64,000 nt of DNA from a virus (IMGVR_UViG_3300025000_000057); one strand, 5' to 3'; positions 6,044 to 55,494 are shown, counted from the first letter of the stretch. Program-made: numbers and translations. Notes: a model not told the origin generated them from the sequence alone.

Positions 6044-6878
6044 CTATTACACCTCCAAATCTAGCTTTAACCTCATCTAATACAGTATCGGTATTGGCTA
6101 GAATTTCCTCGTGGACGCCTAAGAATTCAGTCTTAGTGTCCACATTCTTATAATTAATTCCAGTAACCTTGGCCTTATCTCCATCTATCATTACCACAGC
6201 TTTTACCCTTCCGGTTAAATCCTCTACAGCGCCGGGTGGACTTGACTCGAAATAAATCAAATGAACTGTTCCTCCTGGAGAATCGTATCTAACAACTTTC
6301 TCATTCTCTTTAACAATGTATGAATCTCCTGTTACCCGCCCCGGTCGGCCCCAGCTTTCGCTAACCATCCGGCCCGTATATTGATAGACTTCTATCTTAA
6401 TAGAGGTACTTTCCGTAACACCGTTTTGACCTGGGTCGCTTTCAAACATCAAAACTCCGGCTTTATAATCAAATACCCAGGATAGATCTGATAACTCAGG
6501 TATTCTTGTTTCATCACCCTTGAATATCTTCGCTACATAACCTGGGCCATATTTGGGACTTATAAAGTTACCAGCTATCTCAGTAACATCTCCGGTACCT
6601 GAAGACCAGTTAGATTGCCATACCGGTAATGCTACCCATGCTTTATTCCCCGAAACTGTTTTATCTCTGGTAAGAGTGAGATTCATCTTCTTAATAATAT
6701 CCGTATCAGCAATCGGCACGTCTCGGGGGATCGATTCAGCATACACTTCGTCAGCATGTAGGTCGAAAGCGGTAGGTATATTCTCTTCAAAGAATTGTTT
6801 ATCCGGGCTCGTACGAGCCCGGCTGAATATAGCTTTCCATAGTCTATCTGTTTTAGAACTATCTAACCAATTAGCCAT
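6036..6878 (-). CDS. Virion structural protein (280 aa), unknown function
   Basis: ORF overlapping the next gene by 8 nt, GGTGG RBS. Contains SPKYGPGYVAKIF...WVFDYKAGVLMF. Function inferred from context only. Confidence 0.55.
   Translation of the reverse strand: MANWLDSSKTDRLWKAIFSRARTSPDKQFFEENIPTAFDLHADEVYAESIPRDVPIADTDIIKKMNLTLTRDKTVSGNKAWVALPVWQSNWSSGTGDVTEIAGNFISPKYGPGYVAKIFKGDETRIPELSDLSWVFDYKAGVLMFESDPGQNGVTESTSIKIEVYQYTGRMVSESWGRPGRVTGDSYIVKENEKVVRYDSPGGTVHLIYFESSPPGAVEDLTGRVKAVVMIDGDKAKVTGINYKNVDTKTEFLGVHEEILANTDTVLDEVKARFGGVIDA
6803..6822. repeat. 20-bp perfect palindrome near the 5' end of a CDS
   Basis: CCGGGCTCGTACGAGCCCGG is self-complementary; nt 57-76 of gene 6036-6878. Confidence 0.9.
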
Positions 6879-6879
6879 C

Positions 6880-9214: not shown

Positions 9215-11692
9215 TTATAGAGGTAAGCTCTTGACGTTTTCAATAACAACCTGCTCTGGAGGTGTAATATCTCCAACTTCCGCAATGATAGTCGTTGGCA
9301 TAGAATGCTTACCAGAGGTATCTACTGTAAAGATACTATAGGCGTATATTGTTAAGTCTTCGAGTCCCATATCGTTATAAACGATACTATCTTCGATAAT
9401 CTCAGCTGCTGTAATTGCATCAGGATTATCGAAGGATGGAAATACATTATCATTTTCGTATACCTTACGTCGTATTACGATTTTACTAACTCCGCAGTGA
9501 ACGGTTACCGGGCCTACAGCTGCGCCTGGTAGAGATTCTTGCCCAGCAGAGTTAACGAGTTTTACTCTATATTGTGAAGATTGAGCAAGTCTATCTAACG
9601 TGACAGCATTCCAACGAAGCTGTACATTAATGAGACCTTGACCGTCTAAAGATGTTACATCAACATCAAGATTGCTAACAGGTTCTGGATTTAAATTACC
9701 AGGCTCGTCAGTAAAGACTCGTTGGTTATTGTATTTTACAAGTCCCCAGTCTCCATTATCATCCAGTTTCTCAAGTTTATACGGAGTTTCGGGATGTAGT
9801 TGCATAATCCGTCCAGCTACCTCATCGGAAGGAACTGATTCATTACCACTCTTATCAAAGGCTATCCAGGAGAAATAGTAATCAGTACCCATGTCCGGTG
9901 GCTCGTCAAACTTCACAATCAATTGACCGGTTATTCCATTAGATTCGATGGTAGTATTAATAGGTGGTAATAGTTGTGAATCATCTATAGGTTCCGGGCC
10001 ATAATAAATAACTCCGGGTTGTAAAACGGAGCAATCTAAAGCATTCACTCCGTCGAAAGTATAACTAGCTTTGACAATATCTCTTTCTCCGGCTGTAATA
10101 GTAAATATTCCATTCTTTAAATCTATTTCAAAATCGGTTACGTCCACGTCATTTACCTTAACAGCAATAGCTCTATCACTTAAAATATTACCATGCAGTG
10201 AATACCATTTGTTATCTCTATAGATAAGTTTTTCATTTGTGATAGTAATGGGGTTTATATTCTCTGGTTGCAAAACTTCCATTACCTTGATAGGAAATGC
10301 ATTAAACTTACTGCGGCGCATTATTCGATACCCTTTAACATCGACATCGGTACATCTATCGATTGTTAATTTAAAGGAGCCGGCCTTTACCACGTTAATA
10401 TGAATTACCTTGGATAATCCATTGTAAACAACTGTAATATTAGTAGCACCAACAACTAATCCTATAATTTGTCCACCCTCGATAGTAACAATACCTTCTA
10501 CAGAAGAGACCCAAGTAGCGGTATTAGTTACCTCTACAATACTTTGGTCGGAGTAGATAACAGAGGCTTTATATTGTACAGATTTATTAATATATATTAT
10601 AGATACATCGGGCGCAATGATAAGCTCTACGGGTATGGCAGGGGTAACTACAATAGGTATAGTTCCGGAAACGTTATTGTAAGTAGCAGTTATCGTAGCG
10701 TTACCGGTTGCTACACCTTTTACAACTCCTGTATTAGATATAGTAGTAATAGAAACGCTACTTGAATTATATAAAGCCTCTCGTGTAATATCAGAGATAC
10801 GTCCATCTGAATACTTACATCTTACGACTAGTTGAGCAAATGTACCAGCTACGATAGTGGATTTGTCGATTGTAACTGTAACTTCATCTATTATGGCTGG
10901 CGTTACTGCCATAGGTATTGTAATTTGTTTATCCTCGTAATTGACGATAATAGCTGCGGTACCTTCTCCTACAGCAGATATCAAACCTATGTTAGATACA
11001 TTTAATACAGCATAGTCTGTAGAATTATAAGTAACGAAGTTAGTAAGATTCTCTGTACTACCATCTGATTTGGTAGCTGTTATTATTAATTGTCGTTGAT
11101 GACCGATAGGCAAGGTAGTCGCTCCAGCATCACTTGCAATGGAGTCGATTACAGGATCGAGAACTATTACGGTAATAACCGCCGTTAAAGAATTGTAAGA
11201 TACTGTTACGGTCGCGCTACCTACCTTTGCAAGGGTAATTCTATTCCCGGATATAGTAGCTATTTCAGGATCGTTAATACTAAGTGTAGCCAGGGTGGTT
11301 ATATCAACAACCGTACCATCAGACATATTGGCAGTAACCGTAACGAGTTCGGTACGTCCTTTTGGTAATTCTATTTCTTGTACCGAGGTGCTAATAGAAT
11401 CCATGATAGCCTCGGTTACCTCTACAGGAACCTCCCTAGTAAGTCCGCTATTAGATACTGTAATGAAGGTCGAACCAACAGAAAGACCCTGTACTAAGCC
11501 CGTAACGGACACGATCGCTATAGCAATATTTGAACTACTATATACAGAAGTCTCTGTAGCTTCACTTAATGTACCATCATCCATTTCTAACATTACAGAT
11601 ATCTGCTCGGTCTTACCCGCAGGTACACTGATACCTACAGGTTCGACTAGAATATTACCGGGTGCGATTGCTATTTTAAATTCATCAGACAC
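9215..11692 (-). CDS. Ig-like (Big_2 x5) and FN3-like domain virion protein (825 aa)
   Basis: GTG start with AGGAGG RBS. Five tandem repeats of the type YSSSNIAIAIVSVTGLVQGLSVGSTFITV, plus C-terminal FN3-like segments (YAYSIFTVDTSGKHS). Confidence 0.75.
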   Translation of the reverse strand: MSDEFKIAIAPGNILVEPVGISVPAGKTEQISVMLEMDDGTLSEATETSVYSSSNIAIAIVSVTGLVQGLSVGSTFITVSNSGLTREVPVEVTEAIMDSISTSVQEIELPKGRTELVTVTANMSDGTVVDITTLATLSINDPEIATISGNRITLAKVGSATVTVSYNSLTAVITVIVLDPVIDSIASDAGATTLPIGHQRQLIITATKSDGSTENLTNFVTYNSTDYAVLNVSNIGLISAVGEGTAAIIVNYEDKQITIPMAVTPAIIDEVTVTIDKSTIVAGTFAQLVVRCKYSDGRISDITREALYNSSSVSITTISNTGVVKGVATGNATITATYNNVSGTIPIVVTPAIPVELIIAPDVSIIYINKSVQYKASVIYSDQSIVEVTNTATWVSSVEGIVTIEGGQIIGLVVGATNITVVYNGLSKVIHINVVKAGSFKLTIDRCTDVDVKGYRIMRRSKFNAFPIKVMEVLQPENINPITITNEKLIYRDNKWYSLHGNILSDRAIAVKVNDVDVTDFEIDLKNGIFTITAGERDIVKASYTFDGVNALDCSVLQPGVIYYGPEPIDDSQLLPPINTTIESNGITGQLIVKFDEPPDMGTDYYFSWIAFDKSGNESVPSDEVAGRIMQLHPETPYKLEKLDDNGDWGLVKYNNQRVFTDEPGNLNPEPVSNLDVDVTSLDGQGLINVQLRWNAVTLDRLAQSSQYRVKLVNSAGQESLPGAAVGPVTVHCGVSKIVIRRKVYENDNVFPSFDNPDAITAAEIIEDSIVYNDMGLEDLTIYAYSIFTVDTSGKHSMPTTIIAEVGDITPPEQVVIENVKSLPL
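11616..11641 (-). repeat. 10-bp hairpin (two G-U pairs) near the 5' end of a CDS
   Basis: CCUGUAGGUA-UCAGUG-UACCUGCGGG; nt 52-77 of gene 9215-11692. Confidence 0.7.
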
Positions 11693-11704: not shown

Positions 11705-14380
11705 TTAGAAGTTGTTTACGATTTCTATATTCGGGTGTCCGGGTAGCGTTACCGTTTTACTAACGTTAATATTGTCTATATTTAAGTGACTGGGTTTCTC
11801 TATTACTATTGAAGATATAATTATTCTTTCGTTATCATTAACCGTAACATGTAATGGTTTAACGACTCCGGTTAACTCATCACTTAATATAATATTCGGA
11901 TGTGTGGGTTTCTCTAAAATGATCTCTTGACGATCGACATATTCGATAATCGGTAATGTTCCCCAGGCTATATACTTATGAACAACGGTTTCAACATTCT
12001 CTTCTGATAACTTTCCACCATATTTCTTAAGTACCTGTTTGGGCACTCTAATTACCCCTATACCTGATTCCATATAAGGTTGTCCATCTAGTCGACCAAT
12101 ATCCCAGTAATACTCAGACGCAGGTTCTATCTCAAGAGCCTTATCTATAAGTTCAGGTTTGATACCGCCTCCTCTTGTTCTAGTATCTACGATAGATAAT
12201 CCTTTACTAGTAAGGTGAGGTCTTATACTAATCATGCCTATAAGAGTCGCTGTAGGTACATTAAGTGGTTCGAAACTATGCAACAAACTATTTGGATTGT
12301 AGCTTCCCGGAATTAACTGATCATTTTCATCGAGCCGGCCGGCCGGATTAAGATAAATATATATAGTCTTGTTAAGTAATTTGAAAGTTTCTATGGTTTT
12401 GTATTTATTATCAACCCCTACAATACTACAGGTATGACCAACACCCGGATTCAAATCCAGGAACCAATAATTATTGTGTTCATCGGTAAAACCCTTATAA
12501 GTAAGACAAGTTTCCTTATAGTAATAGAAGGCTTCAACCTGATCTGTCTCCATAATAATACTCTCTAATTCGATAATACCACGTTCCGGGTCTATATCGA
12601 TAATACCAACAGACTTATCATTAATCTTTATCACTACAGGAGCGAGCTCATTAATAAGTATTGGAATCTTTTTTACTTTGATAGTGTACTTATTTTCTAT
12701 GATGGGTCTTTCATGGTCTACTTTGGCGTAAGGTTTACCAAACCCTGAATAAGGTTGTCGCTCATATTCCGGCAAGAAGTAAACGTAAGTATTCCGGTTC
12801 TCATCTATATCAAAGATAGTCCTTTTAAACATACCTCGTTGGATACGAACGTACCAACTCTCAAAAGGCCCTTCTTCTAGCGGTGGTAATAGTTTAATAC
12901 GCTGACAATCAATAGACTTAACAGCATATGTGGATGCGTAATAATGATAATTAGCTCTCGATACTGCGTATAGAATGATATTGTTATTGATAGTTTGATA
13001 CGAGAAATGAATATTACCATTGTCTCCAAATATCAATCTACCACCCGAGTCTGCTACAAACATATCTACCATAGGTATTGTCTTATCCGGGTTAGCCAGG
13101 TATTTAACGTTTACAGAGCATGTGTTTAGTTCTGTTTCGGTAAGATTTAAGAAACCAAAGATATTCTTAAAATTGGTCACCTCTATTTGACCGAGAGACT
13201 TTTTAATATTTATAGTAAATGACCTTTGTCGGTACACCAGATCGTTATAAACAAGTTCGACAATGAAAGAACATTCCTGCTCCTTATCTTCTACGAAAGT
13301 ATTGTATTCACCAGTTATATTTACCTTACCGGTATCCTGAGTAGTAGTTGCGTATAAGGGCCCTAATCCATCCGGTCTTGTCTTAACCCTTACTTCTGGA
13401 TTATCACATATAGCAGTATAAGTATAAATAGCACTTTCAAGATCTCTATACGCGCTCGGTACGTACGGATTTATCAAATCTTTTGCAGCTCTACTGGTAA
13501 TTATCTTATCGTTGCGATTATATTCAGTCAGTTCTCCGGGTAATAACGACTTCTTATTTAACACTTCTGCGTAATAAGAAGGTGTAAAGAACACCTTTGT
13601 CTCTGCGTTTACCTGAACCTCAAGACGGATACTATAATGAAACTGTTGAGGTTTTCGTACTTCTTTGATTATTTCGTTTGGTACATATACTCTACTGGTA
13701 TTAAACTCGTCGCCATTTGTCCTGCAATAAACTCTATCCCAGGGAGATGCGCTCATAACTTCGTCAATACTCATTTGCTCGAATATACGAGTTTGCTTAC
13801 ATAATTCTTTATACCCGGTATAAGTTGCTTTGGTATTATCAATTCGAAGATCAATAGCATCGTACCTAACATATACCTTTTCTTCTGTCTCAAGATATAC
13901 ATCTGCATAGTAAAGGTTACGTTTATTAGATACCGGTAGAATCTTTACAAGCCACTTAGTACTAAGTGGAAAATCGTATTTATTAATTAACTGAATAGAA
14001 CTACCCGTGTAGAATCCTGCATTATCAGGTGGCTTTTGACTGTATATATAATACTTGAGCCTATGCTTATAAAATAAAGGTATCCCATCTTTAAATATAT
14101 CAGTGATTAGAATATCCTGCCCGGGAATAATATTCTTTCCTGCAAGATTGCACAACGTACTTGTTTTGTCTGGCCACATGATTATAGGATTTAGATTGTC
14201 AATATTCCCGGTGCCAGGTTCGTCTATATCAACTATCTTAATATTCTTACTTACAGAAGGGAGTGGCGCATAAGCATAAGCGAGGTTAACCGCGCCGGCC
14301 GGTACCGAAGTACCGGCTCGAATGCGTGGTATTTTAGTACCTTCGACGTATTTCTCATGTTCCTTAGTCTGCCAGTACAT
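11705..14380 (-). CDS. Baseplate structural protein (891 aa)
   Basis: ORF with AGGAGG RBS. C-terminal block DTRTRGGG...YWDIGRLDGQPY...KYIAWGTLPIIEY resembles large-myophage baseplate proteins (recognised by eye). Confidence 0.55.
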   Translation of the reverse strand: MYWQTKEHEKYVEGTKIPRIRAGTSVPAGAVNLAYAYAPLPSVSKNIKIVDIDEPGTGNIDNLNPIIMWPDKTSTLCNLAGKNIIPGQDILITDIFKDGIPLFYKHRLKYYIYSQKPPDNAGFYTGSSIQLINKYDFPLSTKWLVKILPVSNKRNLYYADVYLETEEKVYVRYDAIDLRIDNTKATYTGYKELCKQTRIFEQMSIDEVMSASPWDRVYCRTNGDEFNTSRVYVPNEIIKEVRKPQQFHYSIRLEVQVNAETKVFFTPSYYAEVLNKKSLLPGELTEYNRNDKIITSRAAKDLINPYVPSAYRDLESAIYTYTAICDNPEVRVKTRPDGLGPLYATTTQDTGKVNITGEYNTFVEDKEQECSFIVELVYNDLVYRQRSFTINIKKSLGQIEVTNFKNIFGFLNLTETELNTCSVNVKYLANPDKTIPMVDMFVADSGGRLIFGDNGNIHFSYQTINNNIILYAVSRANYHYYASTYAVKSIDCQRIKLLPPLEEGPFESWYVRIQRGMFKRTIFDIDENRNTYVYFLPEYERQPYSGFGKPYAKVDHERPIIENKYTIKVKKIPILINELAPVVIKINDKSVGIIDIDPERGIIELESIIMETDQVEAFYYYKETCLTYKGFTDEHNNYWFLDLNPGVGHTCSIVGVDNKYKTIETFKLLNKTIYIYLNPAGRLDENDQLIPGSYNPNSLLHSFEPLNVPTATLIGMISIRPHLTSKGLSIVDTRTRGGGIKPELIDKALEIEPASEYYWDIGRLDGQPYMESGIGVIRVPKQVLKKYGGKLSEENVETVVHKYIAWGTLPIIEYVDRQEIILEKPTHPNIILSDELTGVVKPLHVTVNDNERIIISSIVIEKPSHLNIDNINVSKTVTLPGHPNIEIVNNF
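14298..14317 (-). repeat. 8-bp GC-rich hairpin with cUUCGg tetraloop near the 5' end of a CDS
   Basis: GCCGGUAC-UUCG-GUACCGGC; nt 64-83 of gene 11705-14380. Confidence 0.85.
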
Positions 14381-14391
14381 TATATACCTCC

Positions 14392-17300
14392 TTAAACTAC
14401 GTACATCACAAAGGATGTAATAAGATTATCTTTAATTGCTTTTATTAGTAACTTCTTATTCTTATTCGGTATAGTTTCGTAAGGTATCTCTACACCTACC
14501 TTACCACTAACTAACTGATATATGTGTATCTTATTACCTATGACAACTTTAATATCGCCATTTAACGGTTGATAATTACCATCAGTTCCTGTAATGGTTA
14601 GTGTAGCAACTCCACTACTTAAAATAGATGGCCCAGTAATTATCAACTTACCAGTGATAGCTTCCGGAGAAAGCTTTACGACTTTAGAAGTTTCTACTCC
14701 TGTAGCATGAGCCTTTATTACTATTTGCTTAGCTTGGGTTATAACCTTTGATGGTACGATGTACTTAGCAATTGCTACTCCGTTAAAGTTTGTTTCTGTA
14801 TTAGCCGGTGTAACAACACCATCGGTACTTGTAAATGATACGGGTTCGTGAGGTATTGGATTTCCAAACTCGTCACGAACTATGGCAAATATACTTGCCT
14901 GGTCTATACCATTACCCAGGAGAGTATCTGGCGAAACATGTATATCTATCGTAGTAGGTACCGGTATCCTATCGCTGATAAATAAGAATCTACCTTCTTC
15001 TATGCTCATAATAGGATTTAAGTTTACTTCTTCGGCCTTATAGTACGATGACCAGTTATTAGTCTCGTAATATACCTTGATTTTACGGTCTAGACCTAAC
15101 ACGGGATCGTAAACTTTTATCTTAATCAGGTCGTTTTCGGGTTTGTAGTTATAATCGACATAGAAACTACCCGTTAAACAATACCGAACCCGGATTTTTG
15201 TATTTTCACTTACCTTGTACGCCAGCCATATTATACTGTCGTATAATATTACATCTTCGATATCGACCGACTCCCACTTATCAAAGCCAGTCCAATCTAT
15301 GGCAATATCTAGACTATTAGGATCTATACCCATGTGAGCTAGATCGACCCTATTAGTACCATCACCGATTATAATTTCAGTATTTATAAGGGTAGGCTTA
15401 CCGTCACTATCGGTAAAGAACACTTGGCGTAACGGTTCTTCTCTATTATCGTAGACTACAATAGGAGCCCCTTGTCTAGGTACAGGATATACCTCGATTT
15501 CGTTAGCCGTATCTAAAACAAAGTTATCAGTTATCGTTACATCAATCTTCCTAACTTCTTTGATAGCAGCGTGTACAGATGTTGTACCATTGCTATCATA
15601 TCTAAATTCGACTCCGACTGGGCCAAAGACTCTGTATCTACGGACATTTTCGTACTCAGCTTCATTTAGATAGATATACTCATCCACCATTTGCTTTAAG
15701 GTTTTACCCTCTGTTATATCATAGAACAAACCATCTGTTTTTAAAGCAGCTGATTTATTAATCTTAACATCTGTCGGATAAATACCTTGAGGTCTGGATA
15801 ACTCGATCCGTACACTACCGATATAGGGTGGGAAGATATCTTCCATAGTAGCTACAGCACCTAGTACTATCCGTTCAATAACAGGAGCTTGTCTTCCATC
15901 TCCTTTCCTGGCTACAACCTTCCACTTAATATATGGTTCTTGAGTGGATTTGATAAACCCTGTTACATCGTCTACCAGTACCCATTCATTCCATGGGCCC
16001 ATAATACTCGAACTTGTTGAGGTATTTAATTCGAGTATAGAGCCTTCGGGCACCCATCCATCGATCCATAGTATATCCCACTTATGAATAAACTTTGATA
16101 AGCTCTCAGACGATATTGGGTTAGATATTAGTACCATATCTGATAGTAAATCTTGTGCAGTGATATAACCCTCATCGTTAATTACAACATTATGGCACTC
16201 TATATCTGAAAGCATATTTCCGTCCCAGGCAAACTCTGTATTGTTTGGTACCTGGATAGTACCTTGCTGCATAATGAGCCTATATTGAATTTCTGTACCC
16301 ATTGGTACCAATGGTTTTGTACCATTAGCGATTAAATACCAATTACTAATTTCACCATTAACCTTAAACCTAACTTCTGTGTTAAGGCTACCTTGTGGAA
16401 TATAACCTTTAGCTTCGAAGTATTTCCATTCTTGAATACCACTACTTACCGATATCCAATCGGACGTGAAGATACCTGCTTGCCACCCGGTATTAGATTG
16501 ATTCAAGGTTAGGGATTTATTCTCGTTATTTATAATAACTCCGCCAGTCGTAACTCCTGCAGCAAAGTTCTCTACTACGTGTCCTATAACTTGACTGTCA
16601 GCATTTTGCTCTGCATCTGTTTCAAATATAATTTCCAGTTTGATACTCTCAGTATCAAACTCTTTAATAACAATAGGTTTAGCCTCGGGTCTTGTATCTA
16701 CAAATAGATAATATTCATCACTACCAAGATAATAGTAACCCGACTTAATTAACGGATTCCATCTACCTAATTCAGGTATTATTGTTTTCAAGTTAAGGTA
16801 GTAAGTACGCCAGCCGGGTTCTGATTCATCAATATGATCTATCTCGAATTCGATATTCGGGTCGTCCGTATTTAAATTAATATCAAAGTCTTCGCCAGGG
16901 TAACTGGGAATACGAATTCTAATCAATCCGTTTTCCCACGATATATCGGTACCTCCTGGTAGGTTCTGTCCGCCCGGCGATATCCATGGTTTAACGGGTG
17001 CGTATATAGAACCGGGCGCTACCGGTGTCGTATAGTAACCGCCAGAATAACTTCCGCCGCCAGGGTAACCTCCAGGATAAGCCCCGGGATAATTACCAGG
17101 GTAACCTCCTGGATAACCTATCCCTCCTGGATAGCTACCGGTACCGCCGCCTATAGCACCTCCTGGATAACTACCCCCAATAGAACCGCCTATACTACCT
17201 CCGCCAATTCCATAACTGTCAAAACCGGCCGCACAACCGCAACAATACATATTCTCTTTAGTTCTCTTTAAGATTTGTTCTACCCATGATTTTTCATAGC

Positions 17301-20300
17301 CATCTGGTTTTAACTCGATATGGTAATATTTAATAGTAAAAGATTCTCCATTTACAGGTACCGTGTTGTAGTTATTATAATTATTCCAGAAGAATTCAAG
17401 ATTGATATCTGGTAATACGATGTCAGGAAACATAACACCGTATTTTACATTAAACCAATTATTCAATGGTTCTGGTGCATTACATACACCTTCAAATGGT
17501 ACCCAACCACTTCCGTTTTGATTAAATGGTTCTAATCCATTTATCCTTGCAACTTTAACATCTGATTTCAATATTCCTGTTTCAATTCTTGAGACTTCCT
17601 CTACATGGGCGATTATACTTTCAGTAGGTAGTACCCGTCGGTAAGCACTGCTTAACGGTACATTCGGGTTACTTATACTAGTAAACGCGATCCCCCCATA
17701 AGAAGACGCAACCGCGACGCTATACTCAACATTTACATCTAAACTCCATGGTATAGTAACCTGGTCTTTAACTACGTACTCTACTTCTATAGGTTCACTA
17801 GAAGCTAAATTAATCTCATTAGTAACGGCACCTGGTAAGTTTCTAAACCATATAGATGCTATAACACCGGTAAATAATGTACTTAAGTCAACCTGATTAT
17901 CGGCCGCCCAGGATAATAAACCTAATCCATTACTATCTTGTATATGAGCACTCCATTTAACTACCTCTTCTCCGCTATATACCTCTCCTGTACTATTCAC
18001 AAGACTTATACCATTACTGGTAAAGACATGCACAATACCGTCTTCATCTCGTTTAGCTTTACATTCTACACCGGTAGCTTGTCCGGTATATGTGCCGATA
18101 CCATCGTACCATATCTCAAGTGGACTAGAATTATTAGGATCCCAGATACCTTCAGGATCTGGAACTGGCTGAATAGTATCGAACTTTAATTTCCTTCTTC
18201 CCCACTCTGTACTTCCTATTGCGATAGTGTAGCTGAGCGGTTTCGCAAAGGGATAATATATAGGAGAATTATTATACCAGTCTATAAACAATTCAGTTAA
18301 GGTATTAATACTTACATTCAATGGATTGTCACTTGTACTATCCGGTGTAATAATAATATCCTTATCCAGGATTACTGGGTAAGTATGTTGATAATTACTG
18401 ACAAACGTTTCGTGAGTTGTCCATACAGTAACCCGTTCAGTTTCATCTAATTTCCAGAATACGTCAACCGGCATTCTTGGTGTAAGGGTAACATCTACTA
18501 ACTCTAATGGTGAGATATTAAAATTAGGGTAACTTGCCTTTAATGCCGCAAGAGCCTTTTCATTTATATGTCTACGTAATGAATGTCCTGTAATCTTGTG
18601 CAGCTGATTACACTTCGTAATCTCGGAATAGAATGGGCCTACGTTTACGTTATACGTAGTAATACCATCACTACCGATCATATCAACGCTCCATGCAAAT
18701 CTATATGGTACGTGACAACTATCTTTTTGTCCTGTGGTATAAGCCCATACGTAATCTTCATCCATAAAAACAACTACCATATCGTTATTTATACCATGAC
18801 CATCTACCTTGATATTAGTAACAGTGTTTTGATCGATATCTGGAAATTCATTTGCAATGATCTCTTTAACAGTAATGCCAAATACATTAAGTGGCCCATT
18901 AATTTCACTTCCGAATAACGGGCCCACAGCAGGCCCTCGCCAATCATACACATCTGAAATAGTAGATACATAAGTTTTAACATGATGCTCTGGTACCTCG
19001 ATTATATCTCCAGACCACCAACCAAGGACATTATCACCGAAGAGACCGAAACTTAGTACGTCTTTCCGAGTCCAATTTAAGGTAACGCCTTTGACATTGA
19101 GCTTCATATACGATGGTATCGTTACTCCGACGCCGGCTGGTAAAGTAATGCTTGCTGGTACAGCAATAACTCTAACAAGTGTCGGCACAAGAGTAGTATC
19201 TACTGTAAACTCGAATGATACTTGAGTACCATTTGTACAAGTTCCGGTAATTCTAACGCTACCTCCGCTAATACAAGTAATATTACCGTATTCGTCAATA
19301 GAGATAATACCAGGTATATCACAATGCCAAACTATTTGTTCTGTAGCGTTTGCAGGATAAATATTGACATAGTTGAATAAATTAACAGATTCTGTTATGT
19401 TACAATATATAGCTTCGTATTCAGTTTCGATATTCGTTATACCAATATACGGTATACTAACAACGCAAGTATCAGTATATTCACCATCTTCGGTTGTCGC
19501 TATTATAGTACAATAACCATACCAAGCTCCAGTTACTATTCCATTATCATCAACAGTGGCTACGATTGGATTATCACTAGACCATCTGACATTCTTATTT
19601 GTAGCATTAGTAGGATATATTGTTGCAGTTAATGCTTGTGTTTCAAATCTAGATAAGGTAGCAATACCCGGTGCTACACTAATCCAGGTGACAGGAATCC
19701 TACTATCAACATTAATAAGAGAGCTATCAGTAAATCCTCCATCATCGGTTCTTACAGTAACCAGGCATTCACCTGGGCCCGTAATATTAACTTTTCCCGA
19801 AACGGCAGAATCCGGAACTACTACGTTAGAATTACTAGTCGACCATGTAATGCTTTTGTTTGTAGCATTAGAGGGCGATACGGTCGCCGTTAACATAACA
19901 GATGATTGACCAATATTGGTATCGATACGATCTGGTGTAAGAGTTATACCGGTTACATAAATAGCAGGAGTAACCGTTATGATTGACGAATCAGTAAGTC
20001 CACCATCATTAGTTCTTACAGTAATAGTACATTCACCAGGGCCTATAATATTAATTCGTCCTGATACGTTAGGATCCGGAACTGCTACATTAGAGTTACT
20101 AGTCGACCATGTAACACTTCTATCAGCAGCATTAAAAGGAAGTATTCCTAAGCTTAACGTAATATAGGATTGATTCGATACCGTATCTACGTATTCCGGA
20201 TTAATCCATACATTTGTAACATGTATTGTAGGGTCTACAATTGTTACAACTATTGAATCAGTAAGTCCTCCATCTTCTGTTGTACCTGTAATAATACATT

Positions 20301-23300
20301 GACCATAATTCCTTGCCGTAACACGACTATAATTCGTTTCACAAGGAGCTACCGTAGCTATCGATTCGTCACTAGAACTCCATATAATATTCTTATTTGT
20401 AGCATCACTCGGAGTTATGGAATAATATACATTCATCGTATCAATACCCAAGTTGGCAGGGTAAACACCGAATGTATATGAAGATAAATTAAGACTAAAA
20501 CTTATAACTGCTGTCGTTACGGTAATAATACAAGTATCATTTAAATAAGATCCGTCACTAGTTCTTGCCGTAATGATACAGGTACCTATACTTACACCTC
20601 GTACTACTCCGTTACTATCTACAGTAGCGACATTTGTATTATCACTACTCCATGCGAGAATCTTGTTAGTAGCGTCAACGGGTAATATAGTATGCATTAA
20701 CGTATGTGTCTGATCAATTCTTAAAGATTGCATCTCTTGATTTAAATACATGTTGGTTATAGGAATCGCAACCGGATCGGGTGGTAATACCGTAACGTAA
20801 ATACCGGTGTTTACGTTCGTATCAGCATTACATGTAAGACTAATATAACCACTCCCAGCATGTATAGCTGTTATTACTCTATTTTGATCAATATTAACGA
20901 TATCGGGATTTGCATTATACCAAGTAATGCTTTTATCCGTAGTATAAATTGGATATACATCGTATTCTAATGTAAATACCTCGTTAATTCTTAAAGAAAG
21001 TTCATAAACGTTTAAAACTATATTTCTTGGAAGAACCGGTGGAACAATTACTGGTTCAACAAATAAGGTATTTGGTAGTTTTATAACTGGAACTACATGA
21101 TGTAGTTCATCAACATTGACATAATACTCCTCACCATAAGAAGTGCTAGGACAGAAAATACCCTGTGTTGTAGTTCTACCGCTCATTATCCATAACGAAG
21201 GTATGTCTTTAAAAACAAGATTCATTAAATCGCTACCGTCGTCTGGAATTGTTATCTTATAATCAGCATCGTAATCATCAGCAATTAAGATTAGATTTTG
21301 TTCATCAGTAGTAAATGTATTATAGAAATTATTATTGAGATAGTAAGCTACATTGTCAGGATCGGTTGGAATATACTCCACCTCGTCACCTGGACTTTTA
21401 TCAAATGCCATAGGAGGTAACGGAGTTTTTAACATAGCCTCACAACTAGTAGAATCGGGATGATTAACGAATATCCATGATCTACCAGAGAATATAAATT
21501 CATCTCCTGCTCTAAAATCGGTTATACGTACGTATCCGGGCGGCCCTTGTATTACAGTAACACTCATGCTATCACTTGCATGTGAGGCATCATTGGCCGT
21601 AATAGTAATATTACAAGTACCTACACCTACAGCTTTTATTCTTCCGGTAATACTATCTACAGTAGCTATACTAGTATTAGAACTACTCCATGTAACACTC
21701 CTATCTGTAGGATTAGTAGGTAACATTTCATATCCAGGACTAGAGTATCTACCTATTTCTAAATATAAACTACTTATATTAAGAGTTATACTATCTACCA
21801 AAACGATACTGGTATCTACTTTCTCTACAAGCATAGTCTTGTTCAAGTAAATTTGCGGAACAACATGACACGGTGAAGTAACATTAGTATATATATTCTC
21901 GCCTGGACTACCTGGATAATAAGCATATCTTCCACCTATACCGTAACTCCAACTCCAAAGTGAAGGTATGTTCTTATAAACATTATCAAAAAGTTCTTTA
22001 TAACTAGCAGCACTAGGTAGTTCTACTTTAGAACAAAATGTAGGATTAATAAGTAAACCTTTTTCCTCTACTGTAAACGTATTATAGAAAGTATGGTTAA
22101 GATAGTAAGCTATATTATCAGAATCATCTGGATTATAATATTTGTCATTTACATCATTATCAAATGCCATAGGGGCTAATGGAGTTTTTAATATAACCCT
22201 ATCATATGTAGTAACCTCTTCGAGAAGTATCCATACTCTACCTGAGAATATGAATTGATCCCCTTCTTCTAGTTCACTTAATGGTAAGATTTCATTAGCT
22301 TTGCTACTGAATATGGGTTCTTTTATTATATCTATAGATACCGGTTCTATTATAGATTCTGCAGCTGTAGAAATCGTTACAGTACCATATTCATTAATAG
22401 TTACATGAACCCATAAAAGCGTACCCTGGCCCGGCTTGCCAACTGCTATATTAGTCTCTCCCGGACTCATACCGTATACAACACCATCACTAGTGACGAT
22501 AGCTATGTTAGGATGACTACTGGTAAACTCGACAAGATGGTTTATATTACGAGAACTACCGTCGCTATACTCTTCTATTATTTCAAGTCGCTGTCCAGTA
22601 TTAATATTCTTTAGCAGCTTAGATAATGAGTAAACAAGTAACTTATTATCCTGATCGTTAGATATACTAAGACGTACAGGGTTATCAAATATATAGGAGC
22701 CGAGTTGTGTAGCTATAGGTGTAGTATCAAATAGAGTTTCAAGCCGGGAGCTAATATCTGTTGTGATATCGGTTAGTCCCGTCCAGGTAACGGTAAAGTT
22801 ATCATCATAAATAGTAATCTTGGCGCTATTTAATATAGACAAGATATTACTTGGTACTATGGTACCGCCATGATCGATATAACGCGACAGAATTTCACCA
22901 AGTGTTAAATTAATATATAAGTCATTACCAATTTGAACATGAGCTATTTGTGGCGTACCTGTAATAGTAGGCAGCCATAAATACATAATCCCTTCTCTGT
23001 CGGTAATCTCGTAACTTTTATTACCCGTATCTACCTTTAAGGTATATGAGACAAGAGCGAAATCATCTACTATCATTTCCCAATTTATCCCACTTGCTAA
23101 TACATCATCGACAATTCTTTGGACACCTATACTATCAAAGTTAATATTGACAGTATAATCAATATCACTTGAATCACAACTCTGATAGAAAACGTCGGAA
23201 GTTACTTTAATATTAGCAGATATTTTATCAGTAACTTGACCACAAACATCTATGACAGCTCGTGCTTCCGGTATTGCCTTTAGTATTAGTTTGAGCTGAC

Positions 23301-39883: not shown

Positions 39884-40225
39884 TCACCTCGCAACAAAGA
39901 AGTTATTAGAACCGCTTACCATATTTCCGGCCCCTTGGAGATGAATATTCACTCCATCTCCAACTCTTACAATACCCCGACCGTTTACAAATAAACTAGT
40001 ACTAGCCTGTACATTCGTATATCCTGCTCCACAACATGGGCAGGTTGTATAACCTGTATCGCTTAGTCTTGCTGCGGACTTACCGTTAATAAACATATTG
40101 TGACTCCCGGTCACTTGGCCACCCGTAACCGAGTGGCCACCACATCAGTTATCTGGACAACCATGACCATTGTGGTGTCCGACGCTGCCATTCATTCTAT
40201 CACCTATTCTACAAGCTGCTGGCAT
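39884..40225 (-). CDS. PAAR spike-tip protein (113 aa) with one in-frame UGA at codon 27 (40145-40147)
   Basis: ATG 40225 preceded by AGAGGTG. Translation: MPAACRIGDRMNGSVGHHNGHGCPDN*CGGHSVTGGQVTGSHNMFINGKSAARLSD...TCPCCG...FVNGRGIVRVGD...HLQG...SGSNNFFVAR. The track reports only the part after the UGA, which lacks the first PAAR motif. Confidence 0.85.
40116..40139 (-). promoter_or_regulatory. SECIS-like/readthrough stem-loop downstream of the in-frame UGA (PAAR gene)
   Basis: UGGCCACUCG-GUUA-CGGGUGGCCA: 10-bp stem with one G-U pair and loop GUUA. The stem starts 5 nt and the loop 15 nt after the UGA. Confidence 0.6.
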
Positions 40226-40781: not shown

Positions 40782-41167
40782 TACAACTCACCAGTCCTTT
40801 CACCTATCATATCTGGTATAAAAGAACCCTTCCGTCTATGGGTTTGTCTTCTACCCCTTGTAGATGAGCTATAATTAAGATCTAGAACCCCACTTATATA
40901 ACCGAAGGTATAATTACCGCCCGGGAATACGATTTGTACATCTTCTCCCGGAAATGGGCCAGGGTGATTAATTCCACCCTGGATTTGTATAGGTACTACC
41001 AATTCACATATACCACGGCTATTAGGGTCTCTAAATCTTACCTTACATCTCTTTTGTTCTGGATAGTATTCTGTAACAGTCCCTCTAACGTCTTTAGTAA
41101 CGTTAGCTATAGCCGGCGCTACTACCTTTTTGTAAATCGTCTGTAAGATACCGTTATTAAGATTCAT
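40781..41167 (-). CDS. Baseplate spike OB-fold-like protein (128 aa)
   Basis: RGTVTEY...RCKVRF...PFPGEDVQIVFPGGNYTFGYISG resembles the gpV/gp5 N-terminal OB fold. TAATG overlap with the next gene. Confidence 0.65.
   Translation of the reverse strand: MNLNNGILQTIYKKVVAPAIANVTKDVRGTVTEYYPEQKRCKVRFRDPNSRGICELVVPIQIQGGINHPGPFPGEDVQIVFPGGNYTFGYISGVLDLNYSSSTRGRRQTHRRKGSFIPDMIGERTGEL
41085..41106 (-). repeat. 7-8 bp hairpin near the 5' end of a CDS
   Basis: CUAACGU-UACUAAAG-ACGUUAG; nt 62-83 of gene 40781-41167. Confidence 0.65.
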
Positions 41168-53400: not shown

Positions 53401-55494
53401 ATAAGACCAATTAGATTGTAACAAGTTACTGATAAAAGCATCCTTATCCCTTACAGCTTTGGATAAGTTCTTATCATTGAATTCTTCAACCCAGCCTTTA
53501 ATGTCAAAATTGTTTGCAATATCAAATTCTATTTTAGTCTTAGAAGGATCTATAGCCTCTGATACAAAGATACCACGAATTCCGTTTACCTCTTTTAGTT
53601 TATAAGCAAGTTTATCACCACCGAACCTATATAGGTACTTATCCTTACCGACATAACGACTCCAATCGGTAAGGTTCTTGTTGATAATATCTTCTGTCAA
53701 ACCTTCTACCGGAACGTATTGGTCTACTCCGGATTTGACTAAGATATTCTCAGTAACAGCTCTACGGAAATTCTCTAAAGGAGAACCTTCCCGTCCAAAT
53801 TTATCACCAGATTCTCTAGATGCTTCTAGAAGCATCTTTAGATTATCCTCAAACTCCATATTCTCTGCCAGTTCAATCGGTGTTAAAACGGAGTTATCTT
53901 TATCTCCAGTATAAGTCCACCAGGTTTTTGGAATCTTTGGTGCCTCTATATTAAGCTCTTTTGCAATACCTTCTATCTGTTGTTGAGCTATTACATTCTG
54001 TGTGCGCTGACCAACATTAGTACCCATTTGAGTTGCCTTAGCATCCTCGCTGATATATTCAGCTATATCTCTATTGGCTTTTTCTCTCCAGTCATCGTAT
54101 CGACGAGCAGATGTCTCTTTAACTCCTGGTTGATTTTCATACTCGATACGTTCTACAGGTTGTCCATTAACCATCGTATCTAATTGTAAAGCTATTCTTT
54201 CTAACTGTGTAAGACGAGGATCGTCCTTGACAATAGAGTGTTCTCCCCAAGCAAAACCCGTTAAGCTCCCTGGCTTTTCAATATCATATATCCCGGCAGG
54301 TACCTCGTTCCTAGCATTATAGATGAGCTTATCATCACCATAGTAATTGTCTAATTCTTTTCTAATTAATGATACTGTATCACTTGGTAGTACATCTTTA
54401 TTAGATTCAATGAAAGCATTGACAGCCTGCCCGATAGGTGTACGTAAGATCTCACCATTTTCTGTAGTTACGGGTATATGTCTTATAGTCCTAGCAGCCT
54501 CTTTCTGCAAATTAGCTACTTCAAAAGCGACTTTATCAAAGCTATCAGCATACGATTCTATAATCATGGCAGATTTCTCTTCAGGTAAAAGATCTATCCG
54601 AGCTTGTACTTCGATAATCTGGGTACCGATATCTTTAGCCCTAACATATAAGTCTTTCATCTTGGTTTTGTAATGCTTGATTTGATTAATCTCCGTTCGA
54701 ATATTGCCGTAAAGTTCCTTGCCAGCCCCCTCAATCTTACGAGTATCGGAGGCTAACTTCGTAAAATCTACAGAATCTATTCCTGATAACCACTTCTTTC
54801 GTAGTTCTTCAGATAGATTAAGACTCTGGTATTTATGTACCATATTTGCAAGAGTGTTAGTATCGTGTCCTGTCTCTATCATATTCTCAAGAATATTAGC
54901 ACGAACCTTTGCATGGGTAGGTTCGCCTTCATCTAGAGTCTCTATAATGCTATCAATACTAGTTTCTCTTAACGCCTCTTCAATTTGCCATGGAGTTTTC
55001 TTAAGAAGTTCTTTAGCATCCTGTTCCGGTATATTAAGAATAGCAGATACCGCTTCTGTCATTGTAACTCCTGGTTTACTACTCTTTATTTCCTTTACAG
55101 GAATAGTGCTTTTAACAGAGTCTTGCTCATTAGTTTTAGGAATGTCTATACCAATGGTCTTATTAGCCAGTCTCAGATTCGTCTGAACAGCTTTTGATAG
55201 CTGCGTATCTTCCCCAAGGTATTGCTCCATCTCGGCCGCCCATAGGTCAGAAAACCGTACACCATCAATTTGTCGCTCATGCATAGCCTTAAATACAGAT
55301 TCATCGAAATGAACAGGCAGTGGTCGATTACGTCTATCCAGTGTCATAGGAACAAGAGCTTCAAAGTCGGCTGCGGCTATAATATTATATATAGTACGCT
55401 CTTTGTACTTTCCTTCCCCTACCTTCGTGATAAGCTTATCACGAAGGTCGCGTCTTCTACTTTCTATAGTAAAATTGCCCTTAATATCAGACAT
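47401..55494 (-). CDS. Tape-measure-like giant protein (2697 aa) containing a DEDDh (DnaQ-like) 3'-5' exonuclease domain
   Basis: ATG 55494 with GGGGTG RBS. Charged, helical-looking sequence. Motifs VVLDFETTG, VGHNVASFD, IDTLPLF, HHIGKED. Confidence 0.7.
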   Translation of the reverse strand: MSDIKGNFTIESRRRDLRDKLITKVGEGKYKERTIYNIIAAADFEALVPMTLDRRNRPLPVHFDESVFKAMHERQIDGVRFSDLWAAEMEQYLGEDTQLSKAVQTNLRLANKTIGIDIPKTNEQDSVKSTIPVKEIKSSKPGVTMTEAVSAILNIPEQDAKELLKKTPWQIEEALRETSIDSIIETLDEGEPTHAKVRANILENMIETGHDTNTLANMVHKYQSLNLSEELRKKWLSGIDSVDFTKLASDTRKIEGAGKELYGNIRTEINQIKHYKTKMKDLYVRAKDIGTQIIEVQARIDLLPEEKSAMIIESYADSFDKVAFEVANLQKEAARTIRHIPVTTENGEILRTPIGQAVNAFIESNKDVLPSDTVSLIRKELDNYYGDDKLIYNARNEVPAGIYDIEKPGSLTGFAWGEHSIVKDDPRLTQLERIALQLDTMVNGQPVERIEYENQPGVKETSARRYDDWREKANRDIAEYISEDAKATQMGTNVGQRTQNVIAQQQIEGIAKELNIEAPKIPKTWWTYTGDKDNSVLTPIELAENMEFEDNLKMLLEASRESGDKFGREGSPLENFRRAVTENILVKSGVDQYVPVEGLTEDIINKNLTDWSRYVGKDKYLYRFGGDKLAYKLKEVNGIRGIFVSEAIDPSKTKIEFDIANNFDIKGWVEEFNDKNLSKAVRDKDAFISNLLQSNWSYIEDGKYADNQNIVSQVLAQHTITEGPHGQGILKVVSEVEKLLQGRLGYTYDRNPELYLDATQDLTIAVMQAQETSKSGIASSEEILRHYYQLQADPSAYAMDTSSWIEPGDEFYRSERVWHTGRMATVEIIKEMEKAGIDTSNHRDIVSRLVGVREYITNNAGKEGTVHWGKMGYLNTIRAISKKELEQIAKDYIHGGKMVQDNATRKEFRELSFESIVESYTDQETGQVIGGRTYEEALLQNMAEDYQEKTGRKWNKVKRKEDIENIFKAIRDGKDDYDKAYDSLAQRMDLSSMNAEEVDALISKERNAIVDKRLRQVVISRLDGRKVSKEELTTLVEKERKTDINRQNRILSLMDVNDSGSIGRTEQEMLATEYTAIIKSQNPEMGYLDLLEKTASVTGTHNIQAAFNPTEFIESLLDEEGRNALNREHTGSYVVLQSMAMMNKEDGFNFTVTDEHGRQFVPVFGEDGDLLAQYDDHSKLISRTGRGVTRAEDLGHVRPVAFVRSNIEETSSTVIDSQDKYVKSLGAQYDALVRMRDNSWLKQNPADTFMNLEAVLAGHKAVVLDFETTGLLDHPDLQILEIATMDIEAPDGKPKYGEAESILIKPLQKTLDRMNKITDSIYLQKEIMNNTARVPKVGAYEHIGQFATKARELQVKIENTPLDSVERAESIDALKKLQKVVTTDDVMFMRNIAKFSDPEWARKDVKNLDKTYTVDKLFNDTKRAIQRLDSEGVDLEEGLSILKERLDDKAIVGHNVASFDIPMLTKAIDDLPHDIINREIDKTKNLLEDTTDKDEIKRYQNRIKALDDLLTIQDVGEVKARIDTNAEVVKNDARSFNIREGSTRFNFTKLAEPQINPWYTEGTFNRVAGVLGVTDIQFNNLLNSDNGVEEIRNRLSTVDYDSLKTGLQSTIDSQDTTSYAKGIARRRLKIVNGLSEAGVAPTDMVIDRVPLPPDDIPVRTNEFQKAYNKLHSVNYRLTGSLGSGDSTIIERDRVSLRNSFNELMRIATPPDTSSNNRWVTSASGIPSEWDIVGENEILDNYSKTLTGFADEANYWDDLKSRMQNVDDITEHSKNLPLIDTLPLFRWTKPGSGHSIEKVQEHYGAAMEKEGWVPGTHHIGKEDVQTEGYGLIQMINDYKGSKGQIDNFLEPWQQGDMFAVISQEGTNNIPIGEYEFVKQEGPKVIAKELDTGNVVNIDFDNQAKGQRWFTQNVKEINTPGEFNEQLLLDDVNRAIQKGLNKGIAGIDYLKFQSGDDSVDSWNKAYNRLNQIQGELDTVDRYVQESMTDVSGVEKDELRRQAGQMKQEYIQSLSPDDQALLLNRHKFNEIQSDIINDTKLSPRQLRKVESIASILDSDLFRDVITPKMQEIEDTVGSGKITRNDAEEMVRDINNAIKENVPKRKVEHLSNLGNITYKGKRVGQMHLDLANEATIMRSLYSSAEIIGEELFPTHAENDAKAKAINEVLLPWMKRNGFSSAERLEDVANYIMRNKDKLSLSAAEITDWSIPVGKGTQVYVDSEIAINKAFNERLSSIHKRQIDQGIELHEGHDLAERVIRNTREMTQAEYGVIPGMRYNIGTRGEDVNVVMQKIGRPLNGVDGMSLEEIHENFLRHQETVEGLTDELLETTREMDIARQERIPHFNVRQAAKNRREIFNNLIEAQKERNPYLNALSTVADLDAGLDSVSDLTLRAREMLGQVRVDQPTGEERITKWDYSAVPEGSKASVNYTGFRLTDIPDEALTDYIKYQNIGGHERERGMVGNYLQQKGYKAYDEAGQEMSNWNDWRRQPPPDAGDYTIQRPEQLSEGDEQVRQLNEEAKQGKVTRADSPKELVAAMNEESKRAVPESVPTDDKGFFRTLFDEAKTNGRLKWLMGLAGGLAVAGFSLRQLSNQRPFEPEEEGNTESRDMSSNTGPMIDKNTYMEHPDNTGGAQIKIKTKPGNIPHDQIGNIVSETINSELPGVDINVNLTDNTSNISTEYVRSILNQYVSHGYVVNRGE
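55421..55448. repeat. 28-bp perfect palindrome near the 5' end of a CDS
   Basis: ACCTTCGTGATAAGCTTATCACGAAGGT is self-complementary; nt 47-74 of gene 47401-55494. Confidence 0.95.

Follow-up and report, generated by a model that had tools for sequence, protein, structure and literature searches.

Strong hairpins shortly downstream of the start codons of many late genes in a giant Bacillus-type phage

Described stem-loops at gene ends and gene starts

The closest described counterparts of the hairpins analyzed here are the protective 3' structures of E. coli (Dar & Sorek 2018, PLoS Genet, PMC5927463), of which 17 of the 26 mapped by Term-seq are inside the downstream coding sequence (CDS), 107 +/- 56 nt from its start and without U-tracts, and which are conserved in Salmonella and Enterobacter. 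The hairpins in the window (the whole 64,000-nt stretch of phage DNA that was analyzed) resemble them in being stable stem-loops without U-tracts, located just past the stop codon of the upstream gene and often inside the next CDS, but they belong to the late/structural operons of a large phage, lie nearer to the start codon (median nt 60) and are not conserved between distant orthologues. The SRPS stem-loops of Clostridium cellulosome operons (Xu et al. 2015, PMC4423207; SLOFE, PMC8219983) are located in intergenic 3'-UTR-like spacers beside mapped processing sites. The analogy to these that was drawn in the initial annotation holds insofar as both are stem-loops 3' of selected cistrons in a long operon, both settings are Firmicute, and both are proposed to adjust the stoichiometry of subunits, but it fails for the intergenic location: the phage junctions have no spacer and the next CDS contains the stems, on which ground membership of the SRPS class was rejected. 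In both comparisons the phage hairpins are known from sequence alone, whereas the E. coli 3' ends and the clostridial processing sites are mapped.

A different kind of counterpart is the zone of strong folding reviewed by Tuller & Zur (PMC4288200), which is found at the same distance from the start codon, right after the weakly folded initiation region, but is a small genome-wide average, mainly of yeast and mammals, and is anchored to the start codon; the phage hairpins are discrete stems of 8-16 bp in 10-45% of genes that depend on an abutting gene and occur after the stop codon when a spacer exists. The intrinsic terminators and intra-operon attenuators of phage late regions are also GC-rich hairpins after genes, often genes of abundant structural proteins, but theirs is a U-tract directly after the hairpin, which is missing in 99% of the embedded stems here. 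Identity with intrinsic terminators was rejected accordingly, the sole exception in the window being 61177-61202.

Hairpins of the window and their placement

All seven inverted repeats that the initial annotation had listed are present on the minus strand (Table 1). Compared to a background of 40-nt windows (mean -4.7 kcal/mol, sd 2.9), five of the seven are very strong (-17.7 to -21.8 kcal/mol in 40-nt windows) and the stem at 6803 reaches -17.4 to -18.7, but two 6-bp stems that had been added as weaker examples, in genes 2564 and 36298, are at background level (-6.4 and -6.3). The hairpin at 41085-41106 is a marginal member of the class, the one at 39813-39849 was absent from the earlier list, and the one at 25992-26013 is an example of the same class in a spacer setting.

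Table 1. Hairpins of the window. Stem positions are in CDS nt from the start codon; the minus strand is the mRNA sense. Recodings are synonymous recodings that fold as strongly.
Position (core)	Strand	Hairpin	Location	Energy (kcal/mol)	Synonymous null
6803-6822	-	GC-rich 8-bp perfect palindrome	nt 57-76 of 280-aa gene (6036-6878); 57 nt past stop of upstream 773-aa gene	-16.1 stem alone; -17.4 with 10-nt flanks; -17.8 to -18.7 in 40-nt windows	z = -4.8; 0/120 recodings
11610-11647 (11616-11641)	-	15 pairs including G-U pairs; no U-tract	nt 46-83 of 825-aa gene (9215-11692)	-20.8 stem; -21.8 in 40-nt window	z = -2.8; 1/120 recodings
14296-14320 (14298-14317)	-	cUUCGg tetraloop	nt 61-85, core at nt 64-83, of 891-aa gene (11705-14380); downstream of 3482-aa fibre gene	-21.3 to -21.7 in 40-nt window	
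24747-24785	-	two-tier: inner 16-bp palindrome (24759-24774) and outer 8-bp stem	nt 56-94 of 3482-aa gene (14392-24840)	inner palindrome -17.3 only with outer stem; -17.7 in 40-nt window	z = -3.3; 0/120 recodings
25992-26013	-	spacer-type, 9 bp	108-nt gap before 375-aa gene (24844-25971)	-11.6	
33181-33212	-	14 bp, two G-U pairs	nt 63-94 of 1194-aa gene (29690-33274)	-20.9	z = -4.8
39813-39849	-	hairpin	nt 49-85 of 141-aa gene (39472-39897)	-14.3 stem; -14.8 in 40-nt window	
41085-41106	-	weaker, 8 bp	nt 62-83 of 128-aa gpV-like gene (40781-41167)	-7.5 alone; -14.0 to -14.3 with neighbouring stem	z = -2.1; 2/120 recodings
55417-55452 (55421-55448, 28 nt)	-	12-bp perfect palindrome	nt 43-78 of tape-measure-like 2697-aa gene; core at nt 47 from ATG 55494 (better ribosome-binding site) or nt 56 from GTG 55503; 53 nt past stop of 1928-aa gene	-18.3 stem; -19.9 in 40-nt window	z = -6.2
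61177-61202	-	10 bp, then short T-run (TT and more T's); sole terminator-like tail among 5'-CDS hairpins of the window	about nt 91-116 of 1928/1933-aa gene	-13.3	

The strong hairpins that many late genes of this giant Bacillus-type phage carry approximately 45 to 100 bases from their starts are real, and their number is far above the chance level. In the 137-kb contig, folding windows of -17 kcal/mol or lower that start at CDS nt 25-95 occur in 11 of 101 genes (0.96 expected), and windows of -14 or lower at the same offsets occur in 17 of 101 (4.65 +/- 2.15 expected); the expectation was drawn from CDS interiors, and none of 5000 resamplings matched the observed number at either cut-off. Six of the 17 peaks of -17 or lower in the window fall at CDS nt ~45-95, which is about 2% of the sequence and where about 0.4 would be expected. 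The hairpins had been described as position-fixed, and a preferred location does exist, with the maximum of the profile at window-start offsets of +30 to +90, but it is a band rather than a single point: the 5' ends of stems are mostly at nt 43-101 in this phage, and over five phages their median is nt 60 with an interquartile range of 41-82. The band arises because the stems keep clear of the initiation region; the distance is not fixed.

Comparison of folding with synonymous-codon shuffles, a check that the initial annotation had proposed, found that nine hairpins outdo nearly all recodings (z = -2.1 to -6.2), which supports the conclusion that the choice among synonymous codons encodes them. 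No second start codon with its own ribosome-binding site lies downstream, and therefore the stems are truly coding. The suggestion of a function at the RNA level agrees with the ratio of hairpins that pass on the sense strand only to those that pass on the antisense strand only, which is 26:7 at gene starts versus 38:26 in gene interiors (p = 0.044, a marginal significance; in addition, many stems are perfect palindromes that fold equally on both strands). Action on the RNA rather than the DNA level is thus supported, and it is very improbable that the elements are DNA-level palindromes (for protein binding, recombination or replication signals, or cruciforms) or hairpins processed by an endonuclease of the RNase III type. 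Several stems are indeed perfect palindromes of 16-28 bp that fold on either strand, and the class that passes on both strands is enriched (29 of 367 gene starts at tight junctions versus 12 of 1250 interior segments), but the stem sequences are mutually unrelated, so there is no common binding motif, G-U pairs occur in the sense orientation only (those of 33181-33212 become A-C mismatches if read on the opposite strand), and a placement that follows translation signals, namely the stop codon and the initiation region, would be difficult to account for if the sites acted at the DNA level. RNase III cuts the mRNAs of phages T7 and SP82 at intercistronic hairpins, which counts in favor of processing sites, but its classical substrates are about 20 bp, compared to which stems of 8-16 bp are short. 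A search against Rfam 15 families at gathering score gave no match in the window, which also counts against this explanation.

Tight gene junctions and candidate functions

Hairpins were found at 56 of 367 tight junctions (15.3%) and at 17 of 204 isolated genes (8.3%), with a null of ~4.3% (Fisher p = 0.018 for tight junctions versus isolated genes); the same split of an E. coli sample gave 6 of 33 and 4 of 76. Where there is a spacer of 40-200 nt, stems begin a median of 11 nt past the stop codon; at a tight junction they begin a median of 56 nt past it, at about nt +60 of the next CDS. Embedded and spacer stems are alike in their number of pairs (11.4 and 11.5), with a loop of ~5. Six or more T's in the 9-nt tail are found after 1% of embedded stems and after none of the spacer hairpins in this genome; the embedded stems were not called in a consensus terminator scan. 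Both the stop-anchored profiles and the tight-junction excess bear out the link between stems at spacer-less junctions and the upstream gene's end. The hairpin frequency rises from ~10% with flanking genes shorter than 150 aa to 44-47% with genes longer than 1000 aa, far denser than the protective structures of E. coli, and it is associated with the length of the upstream gene no less strongly than with that of the downstream gene, in this genome more strongly (p = 0.0006 versus 0.027). The stems follow genes of abundant virion proteins: junctions of the major head, sheath and tube genes carry hairpins in related phages.

It is fairly unlikely that the hairpins are a translational device anchored to the start codon, in the zone of strong folding at codons 14-34, which would slow the first ribosomes to space them on long genes or shield the initiation region from long-range pairing. 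Their location at nt 40-100 matches the region, past a weakly folded stretch of 10-13 initial codons, in which strong folding is described as selected (PMC4288200), and their frequency climbs with downstream gene length. Because isolated genes have about twice the null rate, and genes behind a spacer have similar rates whether that spacer holds a hairpin (6.9%) or none (8.6%), part of the signal may be anchored to the start codon. The residual rate at isolated genes (8% versus 4%) thus preserves something of the translational alternative offered earlier, but dependence on the junction weakens it: the zone of strong folding would be independent of the neighboring gene, whereas an abutting upstream gene approximately doubles the enrichment here, a spacer relocates the hairpins from +60 to directly past the stop codon, upstream of the next start, the length of the upstream gene matters at least as much, and the hairpins come after the genes of the most abundant proteins rather than inside them.

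Most likely, these are the usual end-of-gene hairpins of mRNA, displaced into the next gene for lack of a spacer. The stems would belong functionally to the upstream cistron and act on the mRNA. Behind many genes of these large phages stands a strong stem-loop of ~11 pairs, with a loop of 4-6 nt and no U-tract, which is placed ~11 nt past the stop codon if a spacer is available. Where genes abut, as in nearly the whole window, structure would have to be kept out of the ribosome-binding site and of the next gene's first ~40 nt, so that the hairpin is encoded, by choice among synonymous codons, at nt ~45-100 of the next CDS. About an even chance is given to the more specific proposal that the hairpins block 3' exonucleases or are processed, guarding the upstream cistron from just beyond the structure-free initiation zone. 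Once an endonuclease has cut the long RNA at some downstream point, exonucleases working 3'-to-5' (of the PNPase or RNase R type) would trim back and stall at the hairpin, the upstream cistron would survive intact with its stop codon, and mRNA half-lives specific to each segment may adjust the ratios of the proteins encoded on a very long late transcript. Decay may follow a different logic in Firmicute hosts than in E. coli, since the former also possess RNase J, a 5'-to-3' exonuclease. Embedded stabilizing stem-loops that set operon stoichiometry would fit the data, and E. coli offers an experimental precedent (PMC5927463).

Placement after genes, and after genes of abundant structural proteins in particular, suits attenuation as well as stabilization. 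Attenuators or pause sites, at which the host RNA polymerase (RNAP), or a YonO/RdRP-like phage RNAP in phages like 0305phi8-36, pauses or partly terminates soon after entering the next gene and thereby transcribes less of the downstream, mostly low-copy, genes, are nevertheless an unlikely explanation. U-tracts on 23% of post-stop spacer hairpins pooled from five phages, the T-run of the embedded hairpin at 61177-61202 and the putative RdRP-family RNAP gp99 of 0305phi8-36 (PMC2147016) are in accord with it, but all except 1% of embedded stems have no U-tract, the terminator scan does not call the embedded stems, T4 and SPO1 have the same enrichment though they use the host RNAP, YonO has no flap domain, through which multi-subunit RNAPs pause and terminate in response to hairpins (PMC5467207), and the embedded U-less structures of E. 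coli showed neither Rho-dependent nor intrinsic termination (PMC5927463). A search of the contig, which is 61% complete, detected no RdRP-family gene but was uninformative. Also improbable, and more so, is a translation-gated punctuation of very long phage late transcripts, or its variant, segment-defining pause or termination signals of a YonO-like phage RNAP. Lying no more than ~100 nt into the next gene, a stem would be melted during translation of that gene and would refold only after a cut in the RNA or an end to translation downstream; if so, how stable the upstream cistron is would depend on whether its downstream neighbor is being translated.

Other large phages and orthologous junctions

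The embedded hairpins are not peculiar to this phage. Two distant relatives show the same enrichment, 0305phi8-36 (16 of 192 genes at -16 or lower versus 1.5 expected) and the Moorella phage MTATph1 (10 of 152 genes at -20 or lower versus 2.5 expected), as do two unrelated phages, SPO1 (9 of 134 genes at -16 or lower versus 0.93 expected) and T4 (7 of 139 at the same cut-off versus 0.34 expected). Hairpins placed in this way, as already demonstrated in E. coli operons, are seen in four other large phages.

The earlier proposal that position and structure rather than motif are conserved stands for the rule of placement but not for individual hairpins, which are not conserved in orthologues at 25-50% amino-acid identity. 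Conservation of CDS hairpins relative to 0305phi8-36 orthologues is not significant (Fisher p = 0.61; Spearman rho = -0.15), nor is conservation of hairpins by junction (p = 0.37 for 0305phi8-36; p = 0.07 for MTATph1), and the placement rule alone is conserved. As to possible selection on the structure, the synonymous null is strongly exceeded; as for conservation, a 63%-identical relative retains only the outer 6 of the 8 bp of the 6803-6822 stem, AT-rich relatives retain the peptide motif and have no stem, and a search for relatives closer than the 63%-identical one found none. Some junctions have counterparts: that of 14296-14320 is the gp163/gp164 junction of 0305phi8-36, with an embedded hairpin 58 nt past the stop codon, and that of 55417-55452 is gp145/gp146, with a hairpin in a 44-nt spacer, 8 nt past the stop codon. 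At some orthologous junctions, including those of gp145 and the major head protein, the hairpin is in a spacer in one phage and embedded in another; after the major head protein gene it is 11 nt past the stop codon in 0305phi8-36 (gp125), 97 nt in this phage and 121 nt in MTATph1.

Strong stem-loops near gene starts

The window corresponds to the minus strand of a 137-kb groundwater IMG/VR contig (positions 22861-86860), whose completeness CheckV puts at ~61%. Its genes are all on the minus strand and close-packed, each with a strong Shine-Dalgarno sequence upstream. Judged by protein matches, the phage is distantly related to 0305phi8-36, a jumbo myovirus of Bacillus thuringiensis (one virion protein is 38% identical); gene order is shared with 0305phi8-36 across the tail, baseplate and fibre module, the counterparts of the 2697-aa, 2073-aa, 128-aa, 3482-aa and 891-aa genes being, respectively, the tape-measure protein gp146, gp147, the gpV-like gp148, the fibre protein gp163 and gp164. 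Comparison of 20 kb with a phage collection by megablast gave zero matches, a search of IMG/VR with an 825-aa protein found no close relatives, and a search of the contig for PF05183 (the Pfam RdRP family) gave no match, every control being equally silent. The sequencing runs listed as containing this DNA are DNA runs of groundwater and sediment, none of them RNA. When 20 kb were compared with contigs of one groundwater run and one sediment run, the only differences were at window positions 7051 (A>G) and 7072 (G>A), both outside hairpins; the groundwater run may be the source of the window DNA itself.

All seven inverted repeats that the initial annotation had reported early in late genes are present at their positions on the mRNA-sense strand, and five of the seven are very strong stems in 40-nt windows (see table). 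The stem at 41085 is real but marginal in strength, and two further "weaker 6-bp stems" (nt 63-80 of gene 2564 and nt 58-77 of gene 36298) fold at background level (mean -4.7 kcal/mol, sd 2.9, in 40-nt windows).

Hairpins of the window and the contig (energies in kcal/mol; empty cells, no value)
Coordinates	Strand	Folding energy	Location or structure
Window, 6803	minus	-17.4 to -18.7	
Window, 11616	minus	-21.8 in 40-nt window	
Window, 14298	minus	-21.3 to -21.7 in 40-nt window	cUUCGg loop
Window, 24759	minus	-17.7 in 40-nt window, outer stem counted	
Window, 33181	minus	-21.6 in 40-nt window	
Window, 55421	minus	-19.9 in 40-nt window	
Window, 25992-26013			9 bp; 3' end 20 nt short of the gp162-like ATG
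Window, 40117-40138		-17.2	9 bp, GC-rich; begins 7 nt past the in-frame TGA of the PAAR-like ORF
Window, 61177-61202			10 bp then T-run; ~nt 91-116 of the 1928/1933-aa virion gene
Contig, 4402-4441			After gp125 (major head protein) orthologue; embedded in next CDS
Contig, 20329-20365			After gp139 (tail sheath) orthologue; in spacer of ~62 nt
Contig, 21195-21227			After gp140 (tail tube) orthologue; in spacer of ~62 nt

The contig, on which 122 genes were called, was folded in every 40-nt window of both strands. Windows at or below -14 kcal/mol make up 2-5% of those at start-codon offsets of +30 to +90, versus 0.45% in CDS interiors. At offsets of 25-95, such a window is found in 17 of 101 genes (4.65 +/- 2.15 expected for the contig) and a window at or below -17 kcal/mol in 11 (0.96 expected), and none of 5000 resamplings attained the observed count at either threshold. 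Against synonymous recodings that follow the codon usage of this genome, nine hairpins each outdid nearly every recoding (z from -2.1 to -6.2). The initial observation of strong stems early in late genes is sound. Miscalling of start codons was ruled out as an artefact by the strong ribosome-binding sites, the lack of alternative starts and PHROG alignments: no alternative start with a ribosome-binding site 3' of the stem exists in the nine genes recoded, and PHROG profile matches begin at residues 2-6, so the stems are genuinely coding.

With sites chosen symmetrically on both strands, sense-only folding exceeds antisense-only folding by 26 to 7 at gene starts compared to 38 to 26 in interiors (p = 0.044). 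This bias favours an RNA-level role but is not strong evidence, because many of the stems are perfect palindromes. It is very unlikely that the stems are DNA-level sites or sites of the RNase III type.

Position of the hairpins relative to the upstream stop codon

The same pipeline was run on the complete genomes of 0305phi8-36 (NC_009760), MTATph1 (OR602862), SPO1 (NC_011421) and T4 (NC_000866). Hairpins at or below -16 kcal/mol were found in 16 of 192 genes of 0305phi8-36 (1.5 expected), 9 of 134 genes of the unrelated Bacillus phage SPO1 (0.93 expected) and 7 of 139 genes of T4 (0.34 expected), and hairpins at or below -20 kcal/mol in 10 of 152 genes of the Moorella phage MTATph1, another relative (2.5 expected). 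In these four genomes, very strong hairpins are 4-20-fold overrepresented within the first ~100 nt of CDSs, and this excess is concentrated at spacer-less gene junctions. Embedded hairpins, by which we mean strong stem-loops inside the 5' CDS of the next gene, are general among the large phages tested and not peculiar to this one. In 200 kb of E. coli chromosome taken as a sample, the overall enrichment is small.

When the five phages were pooled, a strong 5'-CDS hairpin was present in 56 of 367 genes (15.3%) abutting a same-strand upstream gene with a gap of 30 nt or less, versus 17 of 204 isolated genes (8.3%) that lack a neighbour in the 100 nt upstream (Fisher p = 0.018); the interior null is ~4.3%, and the E. 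coli sample is split in the same way (6/33 versus 4/76). A translational role anchored to the start codon would fit the position of the stems, which coincides with a strong-folding zone already known at codons 14-34 (PMC4288200), and may account for the residual enrichment in isolated genes, but it is unlikely, as it explains neither why the hairpins depend on an upstream gene that abuts nor why they relocate into spacers.

The most informative result is the set of stop-anchored profiles. Where a spacer of 40-200 nt is available, strong hairpins begin a median of 11 nt past the stop codon, and up to 17% of windows in this post-stop region pass the threshold. Where the next gene abuts, they begin a median of 56 nt past the stop; measured within the next CDS the median is nt +60, with an interquartile range of 41-82, and at such tight junctions the profiles contain no hairpins over the junction itself. 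Embedded and spacer stems have the same architecture (11.4 versus 11.5 pairs, with loops of ~5 nt in both), and the simplest account is that they form one functional class, of which the embedded members would be shifted downstream so as to leave the next gene free of structure in its ribosome-binding site and initial ~40 nt. Mutual exclusivity of spacer and CDS hairpins was not seen, the CDS-hairpin rate being 6.9% with a spacer hairpin and 8.6% without.

U-tracts accompany 1% of embedded stems versus 23% of spacer stems in the five phages, and none of the spacer stems of this genome; a scan for consensus terminators over 20 kb of the window did not call the listed hairpins, Rfam gave no match, and promoter-like sites occur at chance frequency. 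Transcription attenuation or pausing is doubtful, given that U-tracts are missing, that the hairpins are also found in T4 and SPO1, both of which use host RNAP, and that YonO-type polymerases lack the flap domain on which hairpin-dependent pausing relies (PMC5467207). The stems may well act as barriers to exonucleases or as processing hairpins, in either case protecting the upstream cistron; this reading is favoured because of experimental precedent in E. coli and because they would share a class with the spacer hairpins. In E. coli, 17 of 26 protective 3' structures mapped by Term-seq are inside the downstream CDS, on average 107 +/- 56 nt into it, have no U-tracts and show no termination; the proposal is that, once an endonuclease has cut, they stop 3'-5' exonucleases (PMC5927463). 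The phage stems are like these in being embedded in the downstream CDS without a U-tract, whereas clostridial SRPS (PMC4423207) is a spacer-based version. The proposal of the initial annotation, that late genes carry processing, stabilising or attenuating stem-loops analogous to those of clostridial operons, pointed in the right direction, but the phenomenon, common to all the large phages tested, is a phage case of a known design, not a new mechanism. The analysis contributes a quantitative placement rule, a link to structural genes that are long and abundantly expressed, and evidence that the pattern extends to five phages.

Junctions that carry hairpins and their turnover

The frequency of hairpins climbs with the length of the flanking gene, from ~10% (<150 aa) to 44-47% (>1000 aa), for upstream and downstream genes alike; in this genome the association is stronger for the upstream gene (p = 0.0006) than for the downstream gene (p = 0.027). 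The contig's strongest hairpins, at -23 kcal/mol, lie outside the window and follow orthologues of three abundant 0305phi8-36 proteins (see table). At two orthologous junctions the hairpin is in a spacer in one phage and embedded in another. The major head junction of 0305phi8-36 has it in a 71-nt spacer, 11 nt past the stop, and the embedded hairpin is 97 nt past the stop in this phage and 121 nt in MTATph1; the gp145 junction, before the tape-measure gene, has it in a 44-nt spacer in 0305phi8-36 and embedded here, as the hairpin at 55421.

Presence of CDS hairpins is not significantly correlated with their presence in 0305phi8-36 orthologues (Fisher p = 0.61), nor is presence at the level of junctions significant (p = 0.37 for 0305phi8-36, 0.07 for MTATph1). 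Among homologues of the 280-aa protein taken from four contigs, the outer six of eight base pairs of the stem are kept only in the closest relative (63% amino-acid identity), and AT-rich relatives retain the encoded peptide motif and have no stem. The absence of a significant correlation between orthologues and the loss of this stem therefore indicate quick turnover of the elements; conservation applies to the placement rule and the frequency, not to individual hairpins.

If protection of the upstream cistron is the function, spacer-less phage operons carry mRNA-stability punctuation within codons 1-30 of the following gene, which would explain odd codon choices and palindromes at gene starts. 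The placement rule (~11 nt past the stop if there is a spacer, and past nt +40 of the following CDS if there is none), which also holds in the experimentally easy systems T4 and SPO1, could better the annotation of phage transcripts, would counsel caution when synthetic designs recode phage genes at their 5' ends, and would offer a testable route to virion protein ratios along transcripts of tens of kilobases.

Other hairpins of the window

The hairpin in the 1928/1933-aa virion gene is the sole 5'-CDS hairpin of the window with a terminator-like tail. The 375-aa gp162-like gene, which has no recognisable Shine-Dalgarno sequence, is preceded by one of the few spacers of the late module (window 25972-26079, 108 nt); this spacer, which contains a hairpin, may be a transcript boundary. 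The frame of the PAAR-like ORF (start 40225) runs on in phase into the ORF at 39884-40114. As the hairpin past its TGA matches spacer-type hairpins in size and distance from the stop, a short ORF with a post-stop hairpin is a more ordinary alternative to recoding by a SECIS-like signal.
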